A stretch of DNA of 64,000 bases from positions 17,065-81,064 of the forward strand of contig JAVIYP010000002.1 of assembly GCA_031323845.1 (NCBI GenBank). Direction: 5' to 3'. The number at the start of each line of letters is the position of its first letter. Position 1 is the first letter of the stretch. The position numbers were made by a program, and so were the translations under genes. The notes beneath the pieces were generated by a model. It was not told the origin of the DNA, made no database searches, and was given only the letters and a program-made list of their open reading frames with translations. Shown piece by piece: positions 3,691 to 13,003 of this stretch. Source of the DNA: Bacteroidales bacterium (lineage in GTDB: Bacteria; Bacteroidota; Bacteroidia; Bacteroidales; UBA7960).

Positions 3691-5295
3691 CTAAAACAAT
3701 AAACTCATCTGTTCAAAAGTATCACCTTCAATAAGCTCAATGGCTTTCAGATAAGCATCATCAAGCTGCATAAAAACCTGTGTAAATGCCGAAAAATCGA
3801 ATAAATTACGAGCAATTAGTGCTTTTAGCTGGTTTTTGAGCACCAAAAGACTTTCTTCGGTTTCCTCTTCAGGATACAGATCGTGGGCGGCAGCGTAATC
3901 GTAGAGTTTTTGCAGCAATGCATCATCCACGTTGAAGGCTGCAAGGAAGTGGTCAACATCAGGATATTCCTGTGCCAGCGTTGTCCGGTTGCGGTTGGTA
4001 TATTCTATGCCAAAGTTGTTCAGGATGCCTCTTCGCTGCATTCGTGCAAAAAAATCGGAAACTCTGTTGGTGTCAAGCGGGATAAAGAAGTCCGGCATGA
4101 TACCACCGCCACCAAAAACGGCTCTCTTGTTGTTTTTGGTATAAAATTTAAGAGAATCCGGAAAGCTTATCACATCCGGGTTAACCAGTTCACCTGATGA
4201 CAGTCTTTCGGCAAGATCCCTGTAATATTTTTCTGCTCCTTCGTCGTAAGGTTTCTGGATGTTTCTGCCTGTAGGTGTGTGATAAGCGGCTGTTGTCAGC
4301 CGTATGGCAGAACCGTCGGGGAGTTCAAAGGGACGTTGTACCAGACCTTTTCCAAATGTACGCCTGCCAACCAACAGACCTCTGTCCCAGTCCTGTACGG
4401 CACCGGCCACGATCTCACTGGCAGAGGCACTGCCCTCATTGATGAGCACTACCAGCTTTCCTGTTTTGAACGTACCGCGGAAGGTACTTTTGAATTCCTG
4501 CCGGGGCGCCGCATGGCCCTCAGTGTACACGATCATTTTGTCCCGGTCAAGAAACTGGTCTGCCAGATCAATGGCTACATCGAGATAGCCTCCGGAATTA
4601 TAGTTCAGGTCGAGGATAAGGTGTTGCATTCCCTGGCTCCTGAGGTCTCTCATTGCTTCCTGGAACTCCCGCATGGTGGTCCTGGAAAAACGGTTCAATT
4701 TGATATAACCGATTTCCGGAGTAGCCATAAAAGCAGCATCCAGTGAATGTATGGGTATACGGTCGCGCGTTATGGTAAAATCAAGCAGATTTTTTGATCC
4801 GGCACGAAAGATACTCACTTCAACCTGTGAGCCTCTTTCACCCCGGAGCCTGTCCTGTACGTACTGATTGGTTATCTGGCTCCCATGCGATACTTCTCCG
4901 TCAATCTTGACGATCTTATCGCCCGGCATTAATCCCACCTTTTCTGATGGCCCGCCCGGTATTGGACTGACAACAATAATGGTGTCGTTGATGAGGTTAA
5001 ATTGTATGCCAATGCCTTCGAAGCTCCCTTCAAGGGGCTCGTTGGCCCTCCGCAACTCGTCAGCCGAAAGATACACACTGTGCGGATCCAGCGCTTTGAG
5101 CATTCCTCGAATGGCATCTTCAACCAGCGTTTCATCGTCAAGTTCTTCTATATAGGCAAATTCAATGAACTGGAGTGCCCTTTGCAATTTCTCCATTTGA
5201 CTCTGACGCACTTGTGCATGCCCCACATCAGGCATGATAAAACATGCCGCAACCAAAAATGCAATCCAAAATTTTAACATAGCAAGAATTCTCAT
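3691..5295 (-). CDS. S41 family carboxyl-terminal processing peptidase
   Basis: PDZ segment (GGPSEKVGLMPGDKIVKIDG) plus S41 catalytic region (LINEGSASASEIVAGA; FGKGLVQ). The signal peptide begins at the internal Met (MRILAMLKFWIAFLVAAC), so the start is moved from 5346 to 5295. Confidence 0.85.
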   Translation of the reverse strand: MRILAMLKFWIAFLVAACFIMPDVGHAQVRQSQMEKLQRALQFIEFAYIEELDDETLVEDAIRGMLKALDPHSVYLSADELRRANEPLEGSFEGIGIQFNLINDTIIVVSPIPGGPSEKVGLMPGDKIVKIDGEVSHGSQITNQYVQDRLRGERGSQVEVSIFRAGSKNLLDFTITRDRIPIHSLDAAFMATPEIGYIKLNRFSRTTMREFQEAMRDLRSQGMQHLILDLNYNSGGYLDVAIDLADQFLDRDKMIVYTEGHAAPRQEFKSTFRGTFKTGKLVVLINEGSASASEIVAGAVQDWDRGLLVGRRTFGKGLVQRPFELPDGSAIRLTTAAYHTPTGRNIQKPYDEGAEKYYRDLAERLSSGELVNPDVISFPDSLKFYTKNNKRAVFGGGGIMPDFFIPLDTNRVSDFFARMQRRGILNNFGIEYTNRNRTTLAQEYPDVDHFLAAFNVDDALLQKLYDYAAAHDLYPEEETEESLLVLKNQLKALIARNLFDFSAFTQVFMQLDDAYLKAIELIEGDTFEQMSLLF

Positions 5296-9703: not shown

Positions 9704-10111
9704 ATGTTTACTTATGAAACTCAATTGCGCGTAAGGTACGCGGAAACCGATCAGATGGGTTTTGTCTATTATGGCAACTACCCGCAGTATTATGAAGTAG
9801 GCAGGGCAGATGCCATGCGACAACTCGGAACTACTTATAAGGATATGGAAGAAAGAGGCGTTGTAATGCCCATCGTGGATATGCACATCAAGTATATCCG
9901 CCCTGCACGCTATGATGATCTGTTAACCATCCGGACCACAGTTCCGGAACTGCCGCGTTCGCGCATGCATTTTGATTATGAAGTGTATAATCAGGAGGGT
10001 GTTTTGCTGAACAAAGGTTATACCGTTCTGGCCTTTTTGAATAAATCGAACGGAAAACCTTGTCCGGCGCCTGACTGGTTCCTTGAAAGGTTGCAGGCAG
10101 TCCGGGGTTAA
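9704..10111 (+). CDS. Acyl-CoA thioesterase, 4HBT/YbgC family
   Basis: RVRYAETDQMGFVYYGNY hotdog-fold signature. The start is moved to the ATG at 9704, because the ORF-track start at 9629 lies inside secA. Confidence 0.8.
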   Translation: MFTYETQLRVRYAETDQMGFVYYGNYPQYYEVGRADAMRQLGTTYKDMEERGVVMPIVDMHIKYIRPARYDDLLTIRTTVPELPRSRMHFDYEVYNQEGVLLNKGYTVLAFLNKSNGKPCPAPDWFLERLQAVRG

Positions 10112-10186
10112 TCTTTTTCCTGGGATCGCCACAGATCCCGGACGTATGTTGTTCAATCAATTTTATGTTAATAATACAATACCGTT

Positions 10187-10579
10187 ATGCGAAATATGAA
10201 AATTATTCTTGGTGAGAATCAGCGTGTTGATGCGCTTTATAAGGGCTTTACCATAAAAACTGACCAGCCGGTCAAAGCCGGAGGCGACGAAACTGCTCCT
10301 TCGCCCTTTGATCTGTTTTTAGCCTCCATTGGCACTTGTGCCGGTTATTATGTGCAGGCCTTTTGCAGACAAAGAAAAATCTCTACCGAAGGTATTTCCC
10401 TCGAACAGGTGATGCATGTTGATGAAAATACCAGGATGATAGGAGAAATAGAGATAAAGATATACCTGCCAGAGGGTTTCCCTGAAGCCTATAAAGCTTC
10501 CGTGGTGAAAGCCGCTGAAGCCTGTGCCGTGAAAAAACACATCAGTATGGCCCCGGAATTTGTTGTCCGCATTGGATAA
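10187..10579 (+). CDS. OsmC family protein
   Basis: 130 aa. OsmC/Ohr-like pattern (APSPFDLFLASIGTCAG; AEACAVKKH). Confidence 0.75.
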   Translation: MRNMKIILGENQRVDALYKGFTIKTDQPVKAGGDETAPSPFDLFLASIGTCAGYYVQAFCRQRKISTEGISLEQVMHVDENTRMIGEIEIKIYLPEGFPEAYKASVVKAAEACAVKKHISMAPEFVVRIG

Positions 10580-10720
10580 CAACAGCGCTGTCTTGTCCTG
10601 AAATAGGTTTACACATTTTGTAAACAAAAATCAGGATTATGAGATACAAATTAAACATGTTAACAGATGATGAAAAACTGGCAGCTGTTCTTGCTAAAAG
10701 CCAAAGGCCAAAAGTAGATT

Positions 10721-10787
10721 AAGTGAAAAATGAAAAGAGAAAAGTGAAGAAAAAGGGAAAAGTGAAGAAAAAGGGAAAAGTGAAGAA
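10721..10787 (+). repeat. Purine-rich tandem repeat, 18-nt unit AAAGTGAAGAAAAAGGGA x2.6 preceded by a degenerate copy
   Basis: Units at 10741-10758 and 10759-10776 are identical, with a partial third at 10777-10787. The GTGAAGA core is the complement of the TCTTCAC core of the next array. Confidence 0.9.
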
Positions 10788-10805
10788 TATCTGTAATATG
10801 GCAAA

Positions 10806-10866
10806 TCTTCACATTTGCACATCTTCACATCTTCACATTTGCACATCTGACCTCTGACCTCTGACA
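10806..10866 (+). repeat. 8-nt/7-nt period array: CTTCACAT TTGCACAT CTTCACAT CTTCACAT TTGCACAT CTGACCT CTGACCT CTGACAT
   Basis: Read directly from the sequence. Positions 10823-10848 are identical to 11511-11536. Confidence 0.9.
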
Positions 10867-10919
10867 TCCAATCAGCATCTTAGACATAAACACAAAACAC
10901 AGACGATTAACCACATACG

Positions 10920-10927
10920 CAAATATA
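10920..10927 (-). promoter_or_regulatory. Minus-oriented perfect -7 box (TATATTTG) located 5 nt upstream of the plus-strand ATG at 10933
   Basis: CAAATATA on the plus strand, lying within a 40-nt block that is 78% identical to 11562-11601. It points into the repeat array. Confidence 0.35.
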
Positions 10928-10932
10928 AACAG

Positions 10933-11289
10933 ATGAAAACACTGGTTTTAGGTGCAAGCCCCAATCCTATGCGGTACTCACACAAAGCTGTTAAACAGCT
11001 CAGGGCTCATAACATAGAAGTAGTCGCTATCGGGAAAAGGGAAACAACCATCGAAGACGTACCGGTGATTACAGGTAAACCGCAGATAGAGCAGTTACAT
11101 ACGGTAACCTTATATTTGAACGCTTCGAACCAGGAAGAATACCTGGATTATATTATTTCACAAAAACCCAAACGTATTATTTTCAATCCGGGAACCTATA
11201 ATTTTAAACTGGAAGAGCTTGCAGAGCGAGAAGGGATTACCACCGTATCGGATTGCACCCTGATCATGCTCGCATCGGATGACTATTAA
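10933..11289 (+). CDS. CoA-binding domain protein (YccU-like)
   Basis: 118 aa. MKTLVLGASPNPMRYSHKAVKQL...VVAIG is typical of small CoA_binding_2 proteins. Confidence 0.75.
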   Translation: MKTLVLGASPNPMRYSHKAVKQLRAHNIEVVAIGKRETTIEDVPVITGKPQIEQLHTVTLYLNASNQEEYLDYIISQKPKRIIFNPGTYNFKLEELAEREGITTVSDCTLIMLASDDY

Positions 11290-11493
11290 CCTGGTTTTTA
11301 AATGCATTGCGGTGAAATGCCCTTGTAGAAGATCACGGTTATCCGGAAATGGAGATGATGACATACAAGATAATAATTGTGGTAGCTCGAAGGAAATAAA
11401 AAGAGAAACATGGCTGTTAGCTCTTGGCAGAACGCTTTAAAAATTAAACAAATAAACACATCAACAATAAACAATTTAACAACACTTTAAAAT

Positions 11494-11541
11494 CAGACAT
11501 CTGCACATTTTTCACATCTTCACATTTGCACATCTGCACAT
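11494..11541 (+). repeat. Second copy of the YTKCACAT array: CAGACAT CTGCACAT TTTTCACAT CTTCACAT TTGCACAT CTGCACAT
   Basis: Read directly. It shares a 26-nt perfect core (TTCACATCTTCACATTTGCACATCTG) with 10823-10848. Confidence 0.9.
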
Positions 11542-11593
11542 CTGTTCGGTAACTGAAGTGAAAATTCAAAACGCAGGCAATCAATTACATATG

Positions 11594-11601
11594 CAAATAT
11601 A
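11594..11601 (-). promoter_or_regulatory. Minus-oriented perfect -7 box (TATATTTG) located 5 nt upstream of the plus-strand ATG at 11607
   Basis: Same geometry and same surrounding sequence (CATAYGCAAATATAAAC) as at 10920-10927. Confidence 0.35.
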
Positions 11602-11606
11602 AACCA

Positions 11607-12785
11607 ATGAAAAAAGAAATAGGATTTAATTCAAAACTGATTCATGCTGGTATGTTTGATGATCAGTTTGGCAGCGCTACGGTTCCCATTTATCAGACGA
11701 GCACGTTTAAATTTAAGAATGCAGATCATGGTGCAGCTTGTTTCGCGGGCGAATCAGACGGTTATATCTATACACGGATCAATAACCCAACCATTGATGC
11801 GTTGGAAAAACTGGTGTCGAGCCTGGAAAACGGGTACAGGGGTATTGCCTGCAGTTCAGGAATGGGTGCGGTAAATACCATTTACAATGCCCTTCTTAAG
11901 CAGGGAGATCATATGGTCAGCACGGCAGCCGTATACGGACCCTCACGAGTAGTGATGGAAAAACACTACAGCAGGTTTGGCATTGAGTCAAGCTATGTTG
12001 ATACAGGAAATCTTGAAGAGATCAGGAAGGCCATCAAGCCCAACACGCGCATGCTCTATATTGAAACGCCTGCAAACCCGACCATGGACATCACCGATCT
12101 TGAAGGTGTGGTGGAGATTGCCCGCGAGCATGGACTGATCACTGTTTCAGACAACACGTTCTGCAGCCCATACCTGCAAAAACCACTCGATTATGGGTTT
12201 GACATCGTTTTTCATTCGATTACTAAATTTTTGAACGGGCATGCGGATATTGTCGGTGGCATAATCGTTTGCAGGGAAAAAAAGATCCATGACATTATCA
12301 GGCCGGTGATGGTAACTATGGGTTGCAATATGGATCCTCATCAGGCGTATATGGTTATCCGGGGCCTGAAGACCCTGGCGTTGCGCATGGAGAGGTCGCA
12401 GGAAAATGCCATGCAGATAGCTCGTTTTCTGGAAGAGCATACCAAGGTTGCGTGGGTCAGATATCCAGGGCTTCCTTCGCACCCGCAATACGAATTGGCC
12501 AGAAAACAGATGAGTGGCCCGGGTGGAATGATCAGCTTCGAACTGAAAGGAGGCATCCGTGCGGGTAAAGTGCTGATGGATAACGTAAGATTCTGTATTT
12601 TAGCTGTTTCTCTCGGCGGAGTTGAATCACTGATTCAACATCCTGCCTCGATGACTCATTCCAAAATGAGCCGGGAGGCCAGGGAAAGCTCCGGAATAAC
12701 GGATGGATTGGTCAGGTTTTCTGTTGGAATTGAAAATGTTGAGGATATTATTGAGGACCTTTCAGAGGCGCTGGACAAAGTGTAG
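11607..12785 (+). CDS. PLP-dependent Cys/Met-metabolism enzyme, most likely methionine gamma-lyase
   Basis: 392 aa. Trans-sulfuration family with the PLP-lysine motif HSITKFLNGHAD and the C-terminal VRFSVGIE motif. Substrate assignment is not certain. Confidence 0.8.
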   Translation: MKKEIGFNSKLIHAGMFDDQFGSATVPIYQTSTFKFKNADHGAACFAGESDGYIYTRINNPTIDALEKLVSSLENGYRGIACSSGMGAVNTIYNALLKQGDHMVSTAAVYGPSRVVMEKHYSRFGIESSYVDTGNLEEIRKAIKPNTRMLYIETPANPTMDITDLEGVVEIAREHGLITVSDNTFCSPYLQKPLDYGFDIVFHSITKFLNGHADIVGGIIVCREKKIHDIIRPVMVTMGCNMDPHQAYMVIRGLKTLALRMERSQENAMQIARFLEEHTKVAWVRYPGLPSHPQYELARKQMSGPGGMISFELKGGIRAGKVLMDNVRFCILAVSLGGVESLIQHPASMTHSKMSREARESSGITDGLVRFSVGIENVEDIIEDLSEALDKV

Positions 12786-12859
12786 CGTTTTCTCTTACGC
12801 TCAAATCAAAACAACATCCGAACATACAGAGAATACTTCAAAAACCTTTAAATTATTTC

Positions 12860-12867
12860 TATTTTTG
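12860..12867 (+). promoter_or_regulatory. -7 promoter box (TATTTTTG) upstream of the DUF349 gene
   Basis: Perfect TAnnTTTG, 137 nt upstream of the ATG at 13004. This implies a long leader containing a 15-codon uORF and a hairpin. Confidence 0.35.
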
Positions 12868-13003
12868 CAAAATAGTTAATCACGTTAAATAAAACTATTG
12901 TATAAGCATCATGCCGGAATGCATTCAGGCAGTCACACTCCACAAGGAGTGTTTGTAATACGAAGTCATCCTTCTGAACTTTAATTAGTAAAATTTCTTT
13001 CTG

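Follow-up and report, generated by a model that had tools for sequence, protein, structure and literature searches.

Tandem octamer repeats and a probable duplicated leader segment upstream of two neighbouring genes in a Bacteroidales genome

Two upstream regions of common origin

Two neighbouring genes in the window, that is, the whole 64-kb stretch of DNA analysed here, have upstream regions which are, judging by their sequences, paralogous and derived from one duplicated piece. The explanation that we favour, with a probability of about 60%, combines hypervariable simple-sequence repeats with a local duplication that would have given both genes the same G-poor, unstructured leader, whose function we infer. 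The first gene (10933..11289, plus strand; ATG at 10933) encodes a CoA-binding protein (CoA_binding_2; Pfam PF13380, E = 4e-23), and a 100% identical protein is recorded from a Bacteroidales MAG. The second (11607..12785, plus strand; ATG at 11607) encodes a Cys/Met-metabolism PLP enzyme resembling methionine gamma-lyase (MGL; Pfam PF01053, E = 6.5e-152). They are preceded by the OsmC-to-CoA-binding intergenic region (10580..10932, plus strand; 353 nt) and the CoA-binding-to-MGL intergenic region (11290..11606, plus strand; 317 nt), respectively, both of which are expanded relative to orthologous spacers.

The original prediction that these spacers share an element is borne out by alignment. 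Gapped local alignment pairs 10811-10939 with 11497-11613 at a score of 46, against 12.5 +/- 1.7 (maximum 21) for whole-segment alignment of 300 dinucleotide shuffles, and the proximal block alone, with the arrays excluded, scores 30 against 9.1 +/- 1.6. Since these scores lie far above those of the shuffles, the resemblance of the two segments reflects homology rather than chance. The two segments share an identical 26-mer (10824-10849 and 11511-11536), for which 0 matches are expected in shuffles; its identity had been noticed earlier, with the first copy placed one position off at 10823-10848. Closer to the genes, the proximal A-rich leader blocks, copy 1 at 10888..10939 and copy 2 at 11562..11613 (both plus strand), run into the start codons of the CoA-binding and MGL genes and are 79% identical over 52 nt, ungapped, ending in ATGAAAA; an identity of 31/40 given previously for a 40-nt block was obtained again on recounting from the alignment. 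With 3 mismatches allowed, the core of the block, CATAYGCAAATATAAAC, occurs in the 64-kb window only at 10914-10930 and 11588-11604. Neither the core nor the 26-mer has a third copy in the window, and both are absent from all 165 fetched loci. A metagenome scan for an array together with GCAAATATAAAC gave 6 matches, every one unrelated on inspection, and BLAST of the window against at least 116 array-bearing loci found no sequence in common.

Tandem repeats and lineage-specific expansion of the spacers

Arrays of 8-nt YTKCACAT units had been described in both spacers, and TRF agrees, placing octamer array 1, (YTKCACAT)x5, at 10801..10849 and octamer array 2, (YTKCACAT)x5-6, at 11497..11544 (both plus strand, each with the 26-mer inside) with period 8/16, 5.5-5.9 copies and 80-86% matches. 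Five exact units span 10807-10846 in array 1, and five span 11501-11541 in array 2, with one 9-nt step. Both arrays are in forward orientation, 83 nt (array 1) and 62 nt (array 2) from the ATG, distances exceeding those of many arrays in other genomes. As an 8-mer, YTKCACAT is not enriched, with 18 matches across the 64-kb window against 13.3 expected; its unusual aspect here is tandem clustering rather than frequency.

The same spacers hold other arrays, all on the plus strand, which the earlier note did not mention. A purine-rich 18-nt x3 array, AAAAGGGAAAAGTGAAGA, lies at 10733..10787 (TRF score 103, 97% matches), and its GTGAAGA is complementary to TCTTCAC of octamer array 1. The heptamer array TCTGACC x3 at 10846..10865 (TRF, 100% matches) is found in copy 1 only; it accounts for the indel between the copies and shows as a 13-nt gap in alignments. 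TRF also calls a G-free octamer array, TAAACAAA x5, at 11445..11482. The other intergenic regions of the 64-kb window hold no comparable arrays, in accord with the earlier remark that nothing else there is alike. A 57-aa repetitive minus-strand ORF at 10694-10867 was rejected as a by-product of the repeats. The heptamer TAACTGA occurs once in the region, at 11550-11556.

In five related genomes, the gene string SecA-thioesterase-OsmC-CoA-binding-MGL is compact, with spacers of 16-70 nt. The CoA-binding-to-MGL spacer is 26-36 nt in L117, L122, L123, L125 and L126 and 317 nt here, and the spacer before the CoA-binding gene is 16-70 nt in L122, L123, L125 and L126 and 353 nt here; among relatives with the same upstream gene, the orthologous OsmC-to-CoA-binding spacer ranges from 16 to 108 nt. 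The compact spacers of the five relatives therefore mark those of 353 and 317 nt as lineage-specific expansions. The relatives' orthologous spacers, mostly of 16-70 nt, contain neither the shared leader block nor the composite cassette of arrays and boxes, and absence from relatives was an outcome that the original prediction itself had named as speaking against the cassette. One other relative, L121, has expanded spacers (108 nt before the CoA-binding gene and 153 nt before MGL), which are filled with unrelated 5-9-nt arrays; L121 additionally has related G-free arrays immediately ahead of two neighbouring start codons. In L117, L118 and L119, from a related species, the protein is identical and so are the unique flanks, but the array copy numbers differ, a comparison between samples that concerns other arrays at the orthologous locus; by extension from these, the window's own two octamer arrays would also vary in copy number.

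These observations suggest the following history. The ancestral string SecA-thioesterase-OsmC-CoA-binding-MGL would have been compact and was probably co-transcribed. Both spacers would then have gained, in this lineage, A-rich low-complexity DNA consisting largely of 7-, 8- and 18-nt tandem repeats, with octamer arrays that would lengthen and shorten through replication slippage. A piece of ~117-129 nt, comprising an array, the G-poor leader and the gene-start ATGAAAA, would have been duplicated recently; the homology is plain from the alignment, and from it we infer the mechanism and direction, local ectopic duplication or gene conversion being most likely.

Promoter-like boxes

The primary-sigma promoter of Bacteroidota, as known from Bacteroides and Flavobacterium, has TTTG at -33, about 19-21 nt upstream, and TAnnTTTG at -7. 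Each copy has a minus-strand match to this -7 consensus, TATATTTG, separated from the ATG by 5 nt (10920..10927 in copy 1, 11594..11601 in copy 2), precisely as first reported, and plus-strand CACATTTG boxes, with one mismatch to TAnnTTTG, occur at 10810, 10834 and 11521; the box claimed within the 26-mer is found in both copies. The facing boxes are 65-78 nt apart, or 102 nt if measured from the first plus-strand box, and not about 80-90 nt as had been stated.

Three readings had been built on this layout. A shared duplicated promoter plus leader comes close to the explanation favoured here, at least in its leader part, but a cis-antisense RNA and a transcriptional-interference switch find no support. 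For the latter two, the plus-strand box of the array and the minus-strand box beside the ATG would have to be facing promoters acting on both genes. The perfect minus-strand TATATTTG stands 5 nt from both ATGs, so that the same geometry appears twice, but it is present in both copies because of the duplication, by descent rather than by independent retention, and is absent from all relatives. The box is also common, with 57 TAnnTTTG sites in the 64-kb window against 44.7 expected, so that finding one within an A/T-rich block of 40 nt is unremarkable; read on the plus strand, its bases form the A-rich sequence that leads into the start codon. Downstream of neither TATATTTG box is there a supported minus-strand gene, the nearby minus-strand ORFs being short and within the repeats. 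Neither copy has a TTTG 17-23 nt upstream of the minus-strand box; the TTTG-N17-23-TAnnTTTG composite is absent from the whole 64-kb window, so the missing -33 partner carries only weak weight. Facing promoters are, in our judgement, highly improbable at this locus.

A promoter on the plus strand deserves separate consideration. The shared piece could carry each gene's promoter, the array supplying -7-like CACATTTG boxes, and selection could have favoured its duplication for bringing back MGL transcription once inserted DNA had split the operon. CACATTTG is one position off TAnnTTTG in both copies, and no perfect plus-strand TAnnTTTG box occurs in either spacer. Moreover, a hairpin just 3' of the OsmC stop codon (10596..10636, plus strand; an inverted repeat with 18-nt arms, 78% complementary), present in both the MFE and centroid folds, suggests that the CoA-binding gene may need its own promoter; the consensus scan called no terminator at this hairpin, which is possibly a weak terminator or a 3' stabiliser. 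However, the spacing from TTTG to the next box in the array is 16 nt rather than 19-21 nt, and the boxes stand 85-120 nt from the ATG, whereas in this genome the realistic-looking perfect boxes are mostly found 23-46 nt ahead of the start codon on the gene's own strand, a conserved example being the DUF349-gene promoter box at 12860-12867. Perfect same-strand boxes are found at most 120 nt upstream of 13 of the 51 gene starts. In related arrays elsewhere, units without TTTG are frequent, for example CACATCTT and CACATCTG, and a perfect TAnnTTTG lies between array and ATG in only 7 of 29 sense-upstream arrays, a strict consensus being too insensitive to place promoters relative to those 29. Sigma-70 promoter and intrinsic-terminator scans of 10000-12000 gave counts near shuffle level, with none in the shared pieces. 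We consider a duplicated promoter unlikely, and the promoter-like boxes on both strands are most likely incidental consensus matches.

Composition and structure of the leaders

The OsmC-to-CoA-binding region consists of two halves of different composition: the distal one (10580-10800) is purine-rich with G above C (G 0.217, C 0.109), and the proximal 132 nt (10801-10932) are G-poor and C-rich (G 0.091, C 0.295). From -40 to +20 around the start codon, predicted MFE and A content are -2.0 kcal/mol and 0.53 for the CoA-binding gene and -1.2 kcal/mol and 0.50 for MGL, the medians over 51 starts being -5.5 kcal/mol and 0.33. Translation initiation in Bacteroidota proceeds largely without Shine-Dalgarno pairing. 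In the favoured explanation, the shared piece would be transcribed as the 5' leader of each gene and would supply an A-rich, G-poor, almost structure-free initiation region, a property on which Bacteroidota rely where Shine-Dalgarno pairing is lacking. Array length would drift harmlessly, or may tune expression. The data are accounted for about equally well by a neutral origin of the shared piece that leaves expression unaffected and by the translation-leader role. A putative leader peptide, ATGCAAATATAA at 11591-11602, was rejected; it is a 3-codon ORF of copy 2 only.

The same composition could instead serve control at the RNA level, the C-rich array or leader acting as a Rho loading site, or a hairpin between distal and proximal arrays setting segmental mRNA stability as REP sequences do. 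Unstructured stretches of about 70-80 nt or more with C above G, the composition of a rut site, are present (C 0.295 and G 0.091 over the proximal 132 nt; C 0.236 and G 0.118 over 110 nt), with weak predicted structure. GTGAAGA x3 and TCTTCAC x3 are predicted to pair in three 7-bp helices, although this complementarity is only suggestive, at an estimated p of ~0.02-0.05. Phylum-wide, the C-rich strand runs toward the gene at start and stop codons, and many paired arrays elsewhere form long perfect stems right after stop codons. Folds in the window are, however, no better than shuffles, for 10715-10870 (z = -0.13) as for 11485-11610 (z = +0.79), and local alignment found no inverted partner of either octamer array above shuffle level within its own spacer. 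We regard such control as quite unlikely here. A REP/BIME-like extragenic palindrome was likewise rejected, the stability of both folds being no better than composition predicts. Rfam at gathering thresholds gave 0 matches in the whole window, and permissive E-values over 10500-11700 gave only sub-threshold chance matches.

A family of octamer arrays in Bacteroidota

By their sequence, the YTKCACAT arrays belong to an octanucleotide repeat family recurring in Bacteroidota non-coding DNA. At least 116 stretches match CACATYTKCACATYTKCACAT, against a chance expectation that we estimate at ~4, and the named loci are Bacteroidota in 70 of the 80 matches listed. Among the matches listed, these loci contain 452 arrays, periods 8 and 7 dominating, and CACAT-like arrays make up 14 of the 44 octamer arrays in unselected spacers. 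With genes delimited by a crude, greedy choice of ORFs of 100 aa or more, the median distance to a gene boundary is 16-54 nt on the 3' side of the CACAT strand, and distances on its 5' side are typically about 100-200 nt. The C>G skew is directed at the gene in 80 of the 96 CACAT-like arrays and in 46 of 67 others, and the arrays of the window agree. Among the matches listed, 29 of 107 arrays have an inverted partner 5' of them and 1 has its partner on the 3' side, paired arrays being almost always arranged as (ATGTGNAR)n ... (YTNCACAT)n. Furthermore, a ~95-165 nt element with a conserved core, whose inverted arms are CACAT arrays, is present in viral contigs and a Prevotella genome; it occurs at several loci, including L055, with the core in both orientations.

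This element raises the possibility that each spacer received a copy of a dispersed MITE- or REP-like element with octamer-array ends. The polarity of inverted partners (29:1) is consistent with it, and an abundance of MITEs in Bacteroidota and their phages has been reported (bioRxiv 10.1101/2024.01.18.576219). Nevertheless, neither spacer has the inverted CACAT arm that would correspond to MITE terminal inverted repeats, the homology extends through the start codon instead of ending at a terminus, no target-site duplication is seen, and no third copy turned up in the window, the 165 loci or the metagenome scan; a mobile origin is improbable.

Equally, the units might be sites for a DNA-binding or single-strand RNA-binding regulator of both genes. 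YTKCACAT does precede both, and its unit family is favoured phylum-wide among unselected octamer arrays. With an 8-bp period, however, one site and the next face different sides of the DNA helix, the units in orthologous spacers are quite different or missing, the genes beside such arrays elsewhere have no evident common theme, and arrays in either orientation relative to genes are seen. We give an array of binding sites hardly any credence. The locus was also rejected as a phase-variable contingency locus, its genes encoding a CoA-binding protein and a PLP enzyme and not surface or antigenic products.

For hypervariable repeats with local duplication, the explanation that we prefer, the locus itself is of limited import, its striking promoter geometry being most likely a by-product of the duplication. 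The octamer family, which extends across Bacteroidota classes and phage contigs, may merit a proper census. It is conceivable, although we rather doubt it, that CACATNTN arrays are more than slippage debris and make up a polar class of non-coding element found throughout the Bacteroidota; the accompanying 7/8-nt arrays may fall, more loosely, within this class. In its favour are the direction of the C-rich strand toward the neighbouring gene, the placing of arrays directly at stop codons or a short way ahead of start codons, and the 29:1 arrangement of inverted partners. Such a class could act on RNA in 3'-end formation, gene insulation, Rho loading or non-Shine-Dalgarno initiation, and could spread locally, as here, and on small palindromic elements that phages also carry. 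Transcript 3'-end signals in Bacteroidota are less well mapped than in model bacteria; with these less fully mapped 3' ends and non-Shine-Dalgarno initiation, boundary-constrained repeats are natural candidates for such signals. Gene-boundary arrays are hypervariable markers, too, and probably cause breaks in metagenome assemblies. Phylum-wide recurrence of one unit family, gene-boundary polarity and inverted pairing were not found described in the literature, and a literature search with the repeat strings returned eukaryotic primer sequences only.

Comparison with known systems

The boxes resemble the Bacteroidota sigma promoter in the 8-mer, for which there are perfect minus-strand matches and plus-strand matches with one mismatch, but differ from it in having no -33 element, no minus-strand gene, atypical distances and no conservation. 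As in MITE/REP elements (Correia, REP/BIME), CACAT arrays elsewhere are inverted arms round a short core, and the CACAT-armed elements of other Bacteroidota and phages are intergenic, often directly after stop codons; in contrast, the copies in the window are single-armed and coreless, with no dispersed copies in the data searched.

The original prediction knew of no described element with such a layout. This is only partly right, as the arrays resemble long simple-sequence repeats described upstream of start codons (PMC4679880). In the summary given there, long simple-sequence repeats with 5-11-nt units (Mrazek et al. 2007, via PMC4679880) include the cyanobacterial heptamer STRR arrays; they are head-to-tail, almost wholly intergenic, sporadic and thought to be due to polymerase slippage, with units whose length is not divisible by 3 excluded from coding sequence and with strain-to-strain differences in copy number. 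As far as this summary goes, the present arrays agree in being head-to-tail copies beyond chance in non-coding DNA between Pfam-supported genes; differences in copy number are seen for arrays at the orthologous locus of the relatives L117, L118 and L119. They differ from it in their dominant period of 8 instead of 7 and in that the CACATNTN family is phylum-wide, polar and often inverted-paired.

TAACTGA heptamer direct repeats, for which a role in translation was proposed, are found a few nt from the ATG upstream of start codons in Beggiatoaceae, Cyanobacteria and five Bacteroidetes (MacGregor 2015, PMC4679880). Like them, the arrays here are intergenic, forward and upstream of the starts of unrelated housekeeping genes, with other short repeats alongside, and close relatives have shorter, repeat-free spacers in the same gene neighbourhood. 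Unlike the TAACTGA and STRR heptamers, they have an 8-nt YTKCACAT unit and lie 62-83 nt from the ATG, and, unlike TAACTGA repeats, about half of the CACAT arrays across Bacteroidota abut stop codons, in the opposite orientation. A role in translation has been proposed for short direct repeats that precede start codons (PMC4679880; bioRxiv 10.1101/2022.06.06.494920), and in Nostoc PCC 7120 deletion of heptamer repeats close to the recF and recO promoters altered reporter output (bioRxiv 10.1101/2022.06.06.494920). Although the Nostoc repeats belong to another phylum and have another unit, they consist, like the present arrays, of short units placed contiguously in the vicinity of a promoter or start codon and, by analogy, provide the only experimental hint that we found that arrays of this kind may affect expression.

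Two Expanded Spacers in a Conserved Gene Order

The window carries genes for SecA, a thioesterase, OsmC, a CoA-binding protein (CoA_binding_2), a Cys/Met PLP enzyme (methionine gamma-lyase-like; MGL-like), and a DUF349 protein in this order, which is retained at loci with homologs of 70–77% identity. The CoA-binding protein has an identical entry from a Bacteroidales MAG, and its next homologs are at most 80% identical. The spacer between the CoA-binding and MGL-like genes is 317 nt long in the window, as against 26–36 nt in L117, L122, L123, L125, and L126 and 153 nt in L121, all of them loci with homologs of this gene cluster. The spacer before the CoA-binding gene is 353 nt long, compared with 16–70 nt in L122, L123, L125, and L126 and 108 nt in L121; in L117, a different upstream gene is followed by an array-filled spacer of 340 nt. 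Since the spacers are short in most relatives, the long ones in the window are derived, and on this comparison both have been expanded in a lineage-specific manner by repeat-rich DNA. Neither the A-rich block abutting the two start codons nor the CACAT arrays were found in any of the relatives compared. An imperfect hairpin with 18-nt arms, present in the centroid fold, lies at 10596–10636, 17 nt past the OsmC stop codon, and no T-run follows it.

Other short arrays, namely CACAC, TAAACTTC, TACCGATT, GAAGACR, 16 copies of GTTGAAGA, and TAAACTTT, occupy the spacers of L121 and L117. L121 contains two related G-free arrays: (TAACTTC/TAACATC)6 (4451–4495) directly precedes the start codon of OsmC and (TAAACTTC)3 (4968–4995) that of the CoA-binding gene, a layout at the starts of two neighboring genes of the cluster that parallels the duplicated arrays of the window with a different unit. 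Three contigs from different samples (L117 4640–5000, L118 186–546, and L119 1–271) agree fully in the encoded CoA-binding protein and in their unique flanks (100% identity), and yet the copy number of their TAAACTTT and GTTGAAGA arrays varies, as does the composition of the distal arrays. Copy number thus differs at a relative's locus for members of the repeat family despite identical flanks, and such arrays are therefore hypervariable. One contig of this set stops within an array, presumably where the assembly broke. Tandem repeats are also found in frame within the DUF349 genes of relatives, with units of 15 or 21 nt (L126 4946–5064, L127 4946–5316, L117 7301–7508, and L125 4861–5030); two otherwise similar contigs have 5.7 and 17.7 copies in genes recorded at 719 and 803 residues, both of which run past the end of the fetched locus.

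A Homologous Piece before Two Neighboring Genes

The regions upstream of the CoA-binding gene (copy 1, 10580–10932) and of the MGL-like gene (copy 2, 11290–11606) had been proposed to be paralogous, and local alignment bears this out. Gapped alignment of 10811–10939 with 11497–11613 scores 46 (dinucleotide shuffles, 12.5 ± 1.7), and the same segments without the arrays score 30 (shuffles, 9.1 ± 1.6). As these scores lie far above those of the shuffles, the two upstream pieces are homologous, over about 117–129 nt by this alignment. The 26-mer TTCACATCTTCACATTTGCACATCTG is identical in both copies, where shuffles expect none, and lies at 10824–10849, one nucleotide from the position first assigned to it, and at 11511–11536. 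The start-codon blocks (10888–10939 and 11562–11613) align without gaps at 79% identity over 52 nt and end in ATGAAAA; the 31/40 identity reported earlier for a 40-nt part was reproduced, and the core CATAYGCAAATATAAAC occurs in the window only in these two blocks, even when three mismatches are allowed.

Tandem Repeats Finder (TRF) places plus-strand octamer arrays of the CACATNTN type and of period 8/16 at 10801–10849 and 11497–11544, within which exact YTKCACAT units occur five times each on the plus strand (10807–10846 and 11501–11541), the second set with one 9-nt step. That these units form an array of regulator sites is the least probable of the readings considered. Two further arrays had escaped the original prediction, AAAAGGGAAAAGTGAAGA in three copies at 10733–10787 and TAAACAAA in five at 11445–11482, and the chief difference between the copies is a threefold TCTGACC array confined to copy 1. 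No arrays of such kind occur in the other spacers of the 64-kb window.

The cassette is most likely a product of intergenic simple-sequence repeats and local duplication. Local ectopic duplication or gene conversion would have placed the shared piece before both genes; the ATGAAAA found in both copies opens too many genes to indicate a direction of copying. The piece may then be transcribed as the leader of both genes. From −40 to +20, their starts have a minimum free energy of −2.0 (CoA-binding) and −1.2 kcal/mol (MGL-like) and an A content of 0.53 and 0.50, with medians of −5.5 kcal/mol and 0.33 for the 51 starts of the window; few of these starts have less predicted structure or more A. Initiation in Bacteroidota relies on open, A-rich regions instead of Shine-Dalgarno pairing, and the predicted openness of the two starts fits this style. 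An origin by purely neutral processes would fit the data about equally well. In both spacers, the distal half has more G than C and the proximal half is G-poor and C-rich; a Rho-loading or hairpin RNA element in such spacers is rather improbable.

Facing Boxes and a Probable Promoter for Comparison

The window contains 57 matches to the Bacteroidota −7 consensus TAnnTTTG, as against 44.7 expected, and the composite of this consensus with the −33 element (TTTG-N17–23-TAnnTTTG) is absent throughout. Perfect boxes of functional appearance in this genome lie on the strand of their own gene, mostly 23–46 nt from the ATG. The original prediction had two −7 boxes facing each other upstream of each gene. 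The minus-strand box, TATATTTG, lies 5 nt from each ATG with neither a −33 partner nor a minus-strand gene to serve; it is present in both copies through descent, and its bases are the A-rich CAAATATAAAC stretch that precedes each start codon on the plus strand. The plus-strand boxes (CACATTTG) have one mismatch to the consensus and lie 85–120 nt from the ATGs, and units in many CACAT-family arrays of other genomes lack TTTG. Nothing independent supports the facing geometry, and an antisense RNA driven by these boxes is very unlikely. If it existed, a change of TATATTTG to TATACCCG would have an effect; if the piece acts as a leader, only replacement of the block would.

The conserved spacer between the MGL-like and DUF349 genes (12786–13003) shows what a real promoter probably looks like in this lineage. 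It is conserved, leader included, in all relatives. It contains a −7 box, TATTTTTG (12860–12867), and GTCACAC...GTGT as an inverted repeat, and ACTTTAATTAGTAAC is invariant some 20 nt ahead of the ATG. The spacer looks like a promoter with a structured leader and has no Rfam match. A duplicated promoter in the two expanded spacers, with the plus-strand boxes as candidates, is unlikely. The repeats and the homology of the original prediction stand, and its interpretation is supported in part.

A Polar Octamer Family across Bacteroidota

A scan for CACATYTKCACATYTKCACAT through 596 Gb, with one genome per species, matched at least 116 stretches, where about four chance matches are expected by our estimate. 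Among the matches listed, Bacteroidota account for 70 of 80 named loci, with Chitinophagia, Sphingobacteriia, Flavobacteriia, Bacteroidia, and Cytophagia represented. Cultivable carriers among them include Chitinophaga agrisoli BN140078, Terrimonas ferruginea DSM 30193, Mucilaginibacter litoreus CCUG 61484, Cloacibacterium rupense, and Prevotellamassilia timonensis. TRF found 452 arrays in 0.9 Mb of these listed loci, 182 of period 8 and 66 of period 7, both far commoner than periods 6 and 9; heptamer units are highly diverse, unlike octamers, and CACAT-like units make up 14 of the 44 period-8/16 arrays in those spacers that lie over 600 nt away from the selecting match.

Gene boundaries rest on a crude, greedy choice of ORFs of 100 aa or more. 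Among the matches listed, the CACAT strand has a gene boundary close by on its 3′ side. In 44 arrays, this is a start codon on the same strand, at a median of about 50 nt; in 56, it is a stop codon of a gene in convergent orientation, at a median of 16 nt and often with a junction of exactly CACAT-TA. The spacer on the 5′ side is typically 100–200 nt. Of 107 listed arrays, 29 have an inverted ATGTG-type partner on the 5′ side and 1 has such a partner on the 3′ side, in each case within 400 nt (background, 15/1518 windows), which gives a recurrent layout of gene-(ATGTGNAR)n-center-(YTNCACAT)n-gene. In the same matches, the nearest gene lies in the direction of the C>G skew for 80 of 96 CACAT-like arrays and for 46 of 67 other arrays with units of 5–9 nt, and the spacers of the window follow this rule, with the C-rich side toward the gene. 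By unit and polarity, the arrays of the window belong to this recurrent repeat family. In L001–L116, the matched stretches, arrays of 7- and 8-nt units, CACAT and others, very often start no more than about 10 nt from a stop codon by the crude gene calls. In contigs labeled Christensenella sp. UBA1685 (L007, L023, L033, L056, L068, and L069), CACAT arrays are numerous, and a GC-rich hairpin module (GAGCGCGACGATTCAATCGTCGC-CCCCAT) stands before each of them; as the repeat content of these contigs looks Bacteroidota-like, the bin label may be wrong.

Thirty-two viral contigs also contain the octamer pattern, and several (L134, L135, L139, L142, L144, L153, and L140 at 1588–1750, 11675–11775, and 12177–12269), as well as L055, carry an element of 95–165 nt with CACAT arms around a conserved core, built as (ATGTGCAA)3–4, core (GGTCGCCTTTGTACGC...CATCATTCAATCATT), and (TTGCACAT)3–4. 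The core occurs in both orientations inside one viral contig and is common to a Prevotella genome. This build resembles a MITE- or REP-like element with octamer arrays as inverted arms; that the cassette of the window is itself a MITE-like insertion is improbable.

The locus itself is of modest interest; the polar family across the phylum, which rests on the matches listed and on crude gene calls, is the more interesting lead.

Comparison with Known Repeats

No paper with CACAT octamer strings and no description of their polarity were found in the literature searched. The closest described things include long simple sequence repeats with units of 5–11 nt and, in Nostoc, heptamer repeats close to the promoters of recF and recO, the removal of which affected the output of a reporter (bioRxiv 10.1101/2022.06.06.494920). 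Another close case is the heptamer TAACTGA, repeated ahead of start codons in Beggiatoaceae, Cyanobacteria, and a few Bacteroidetes, for which a role in translation has been proposed; in relatives, the spacers are shorter and repeat-free and the gene neighborhood is unchanged (PMC4679880). These shorter, repeat-free spacers in relatives are a likeness between the TAACTGA loci and the window.
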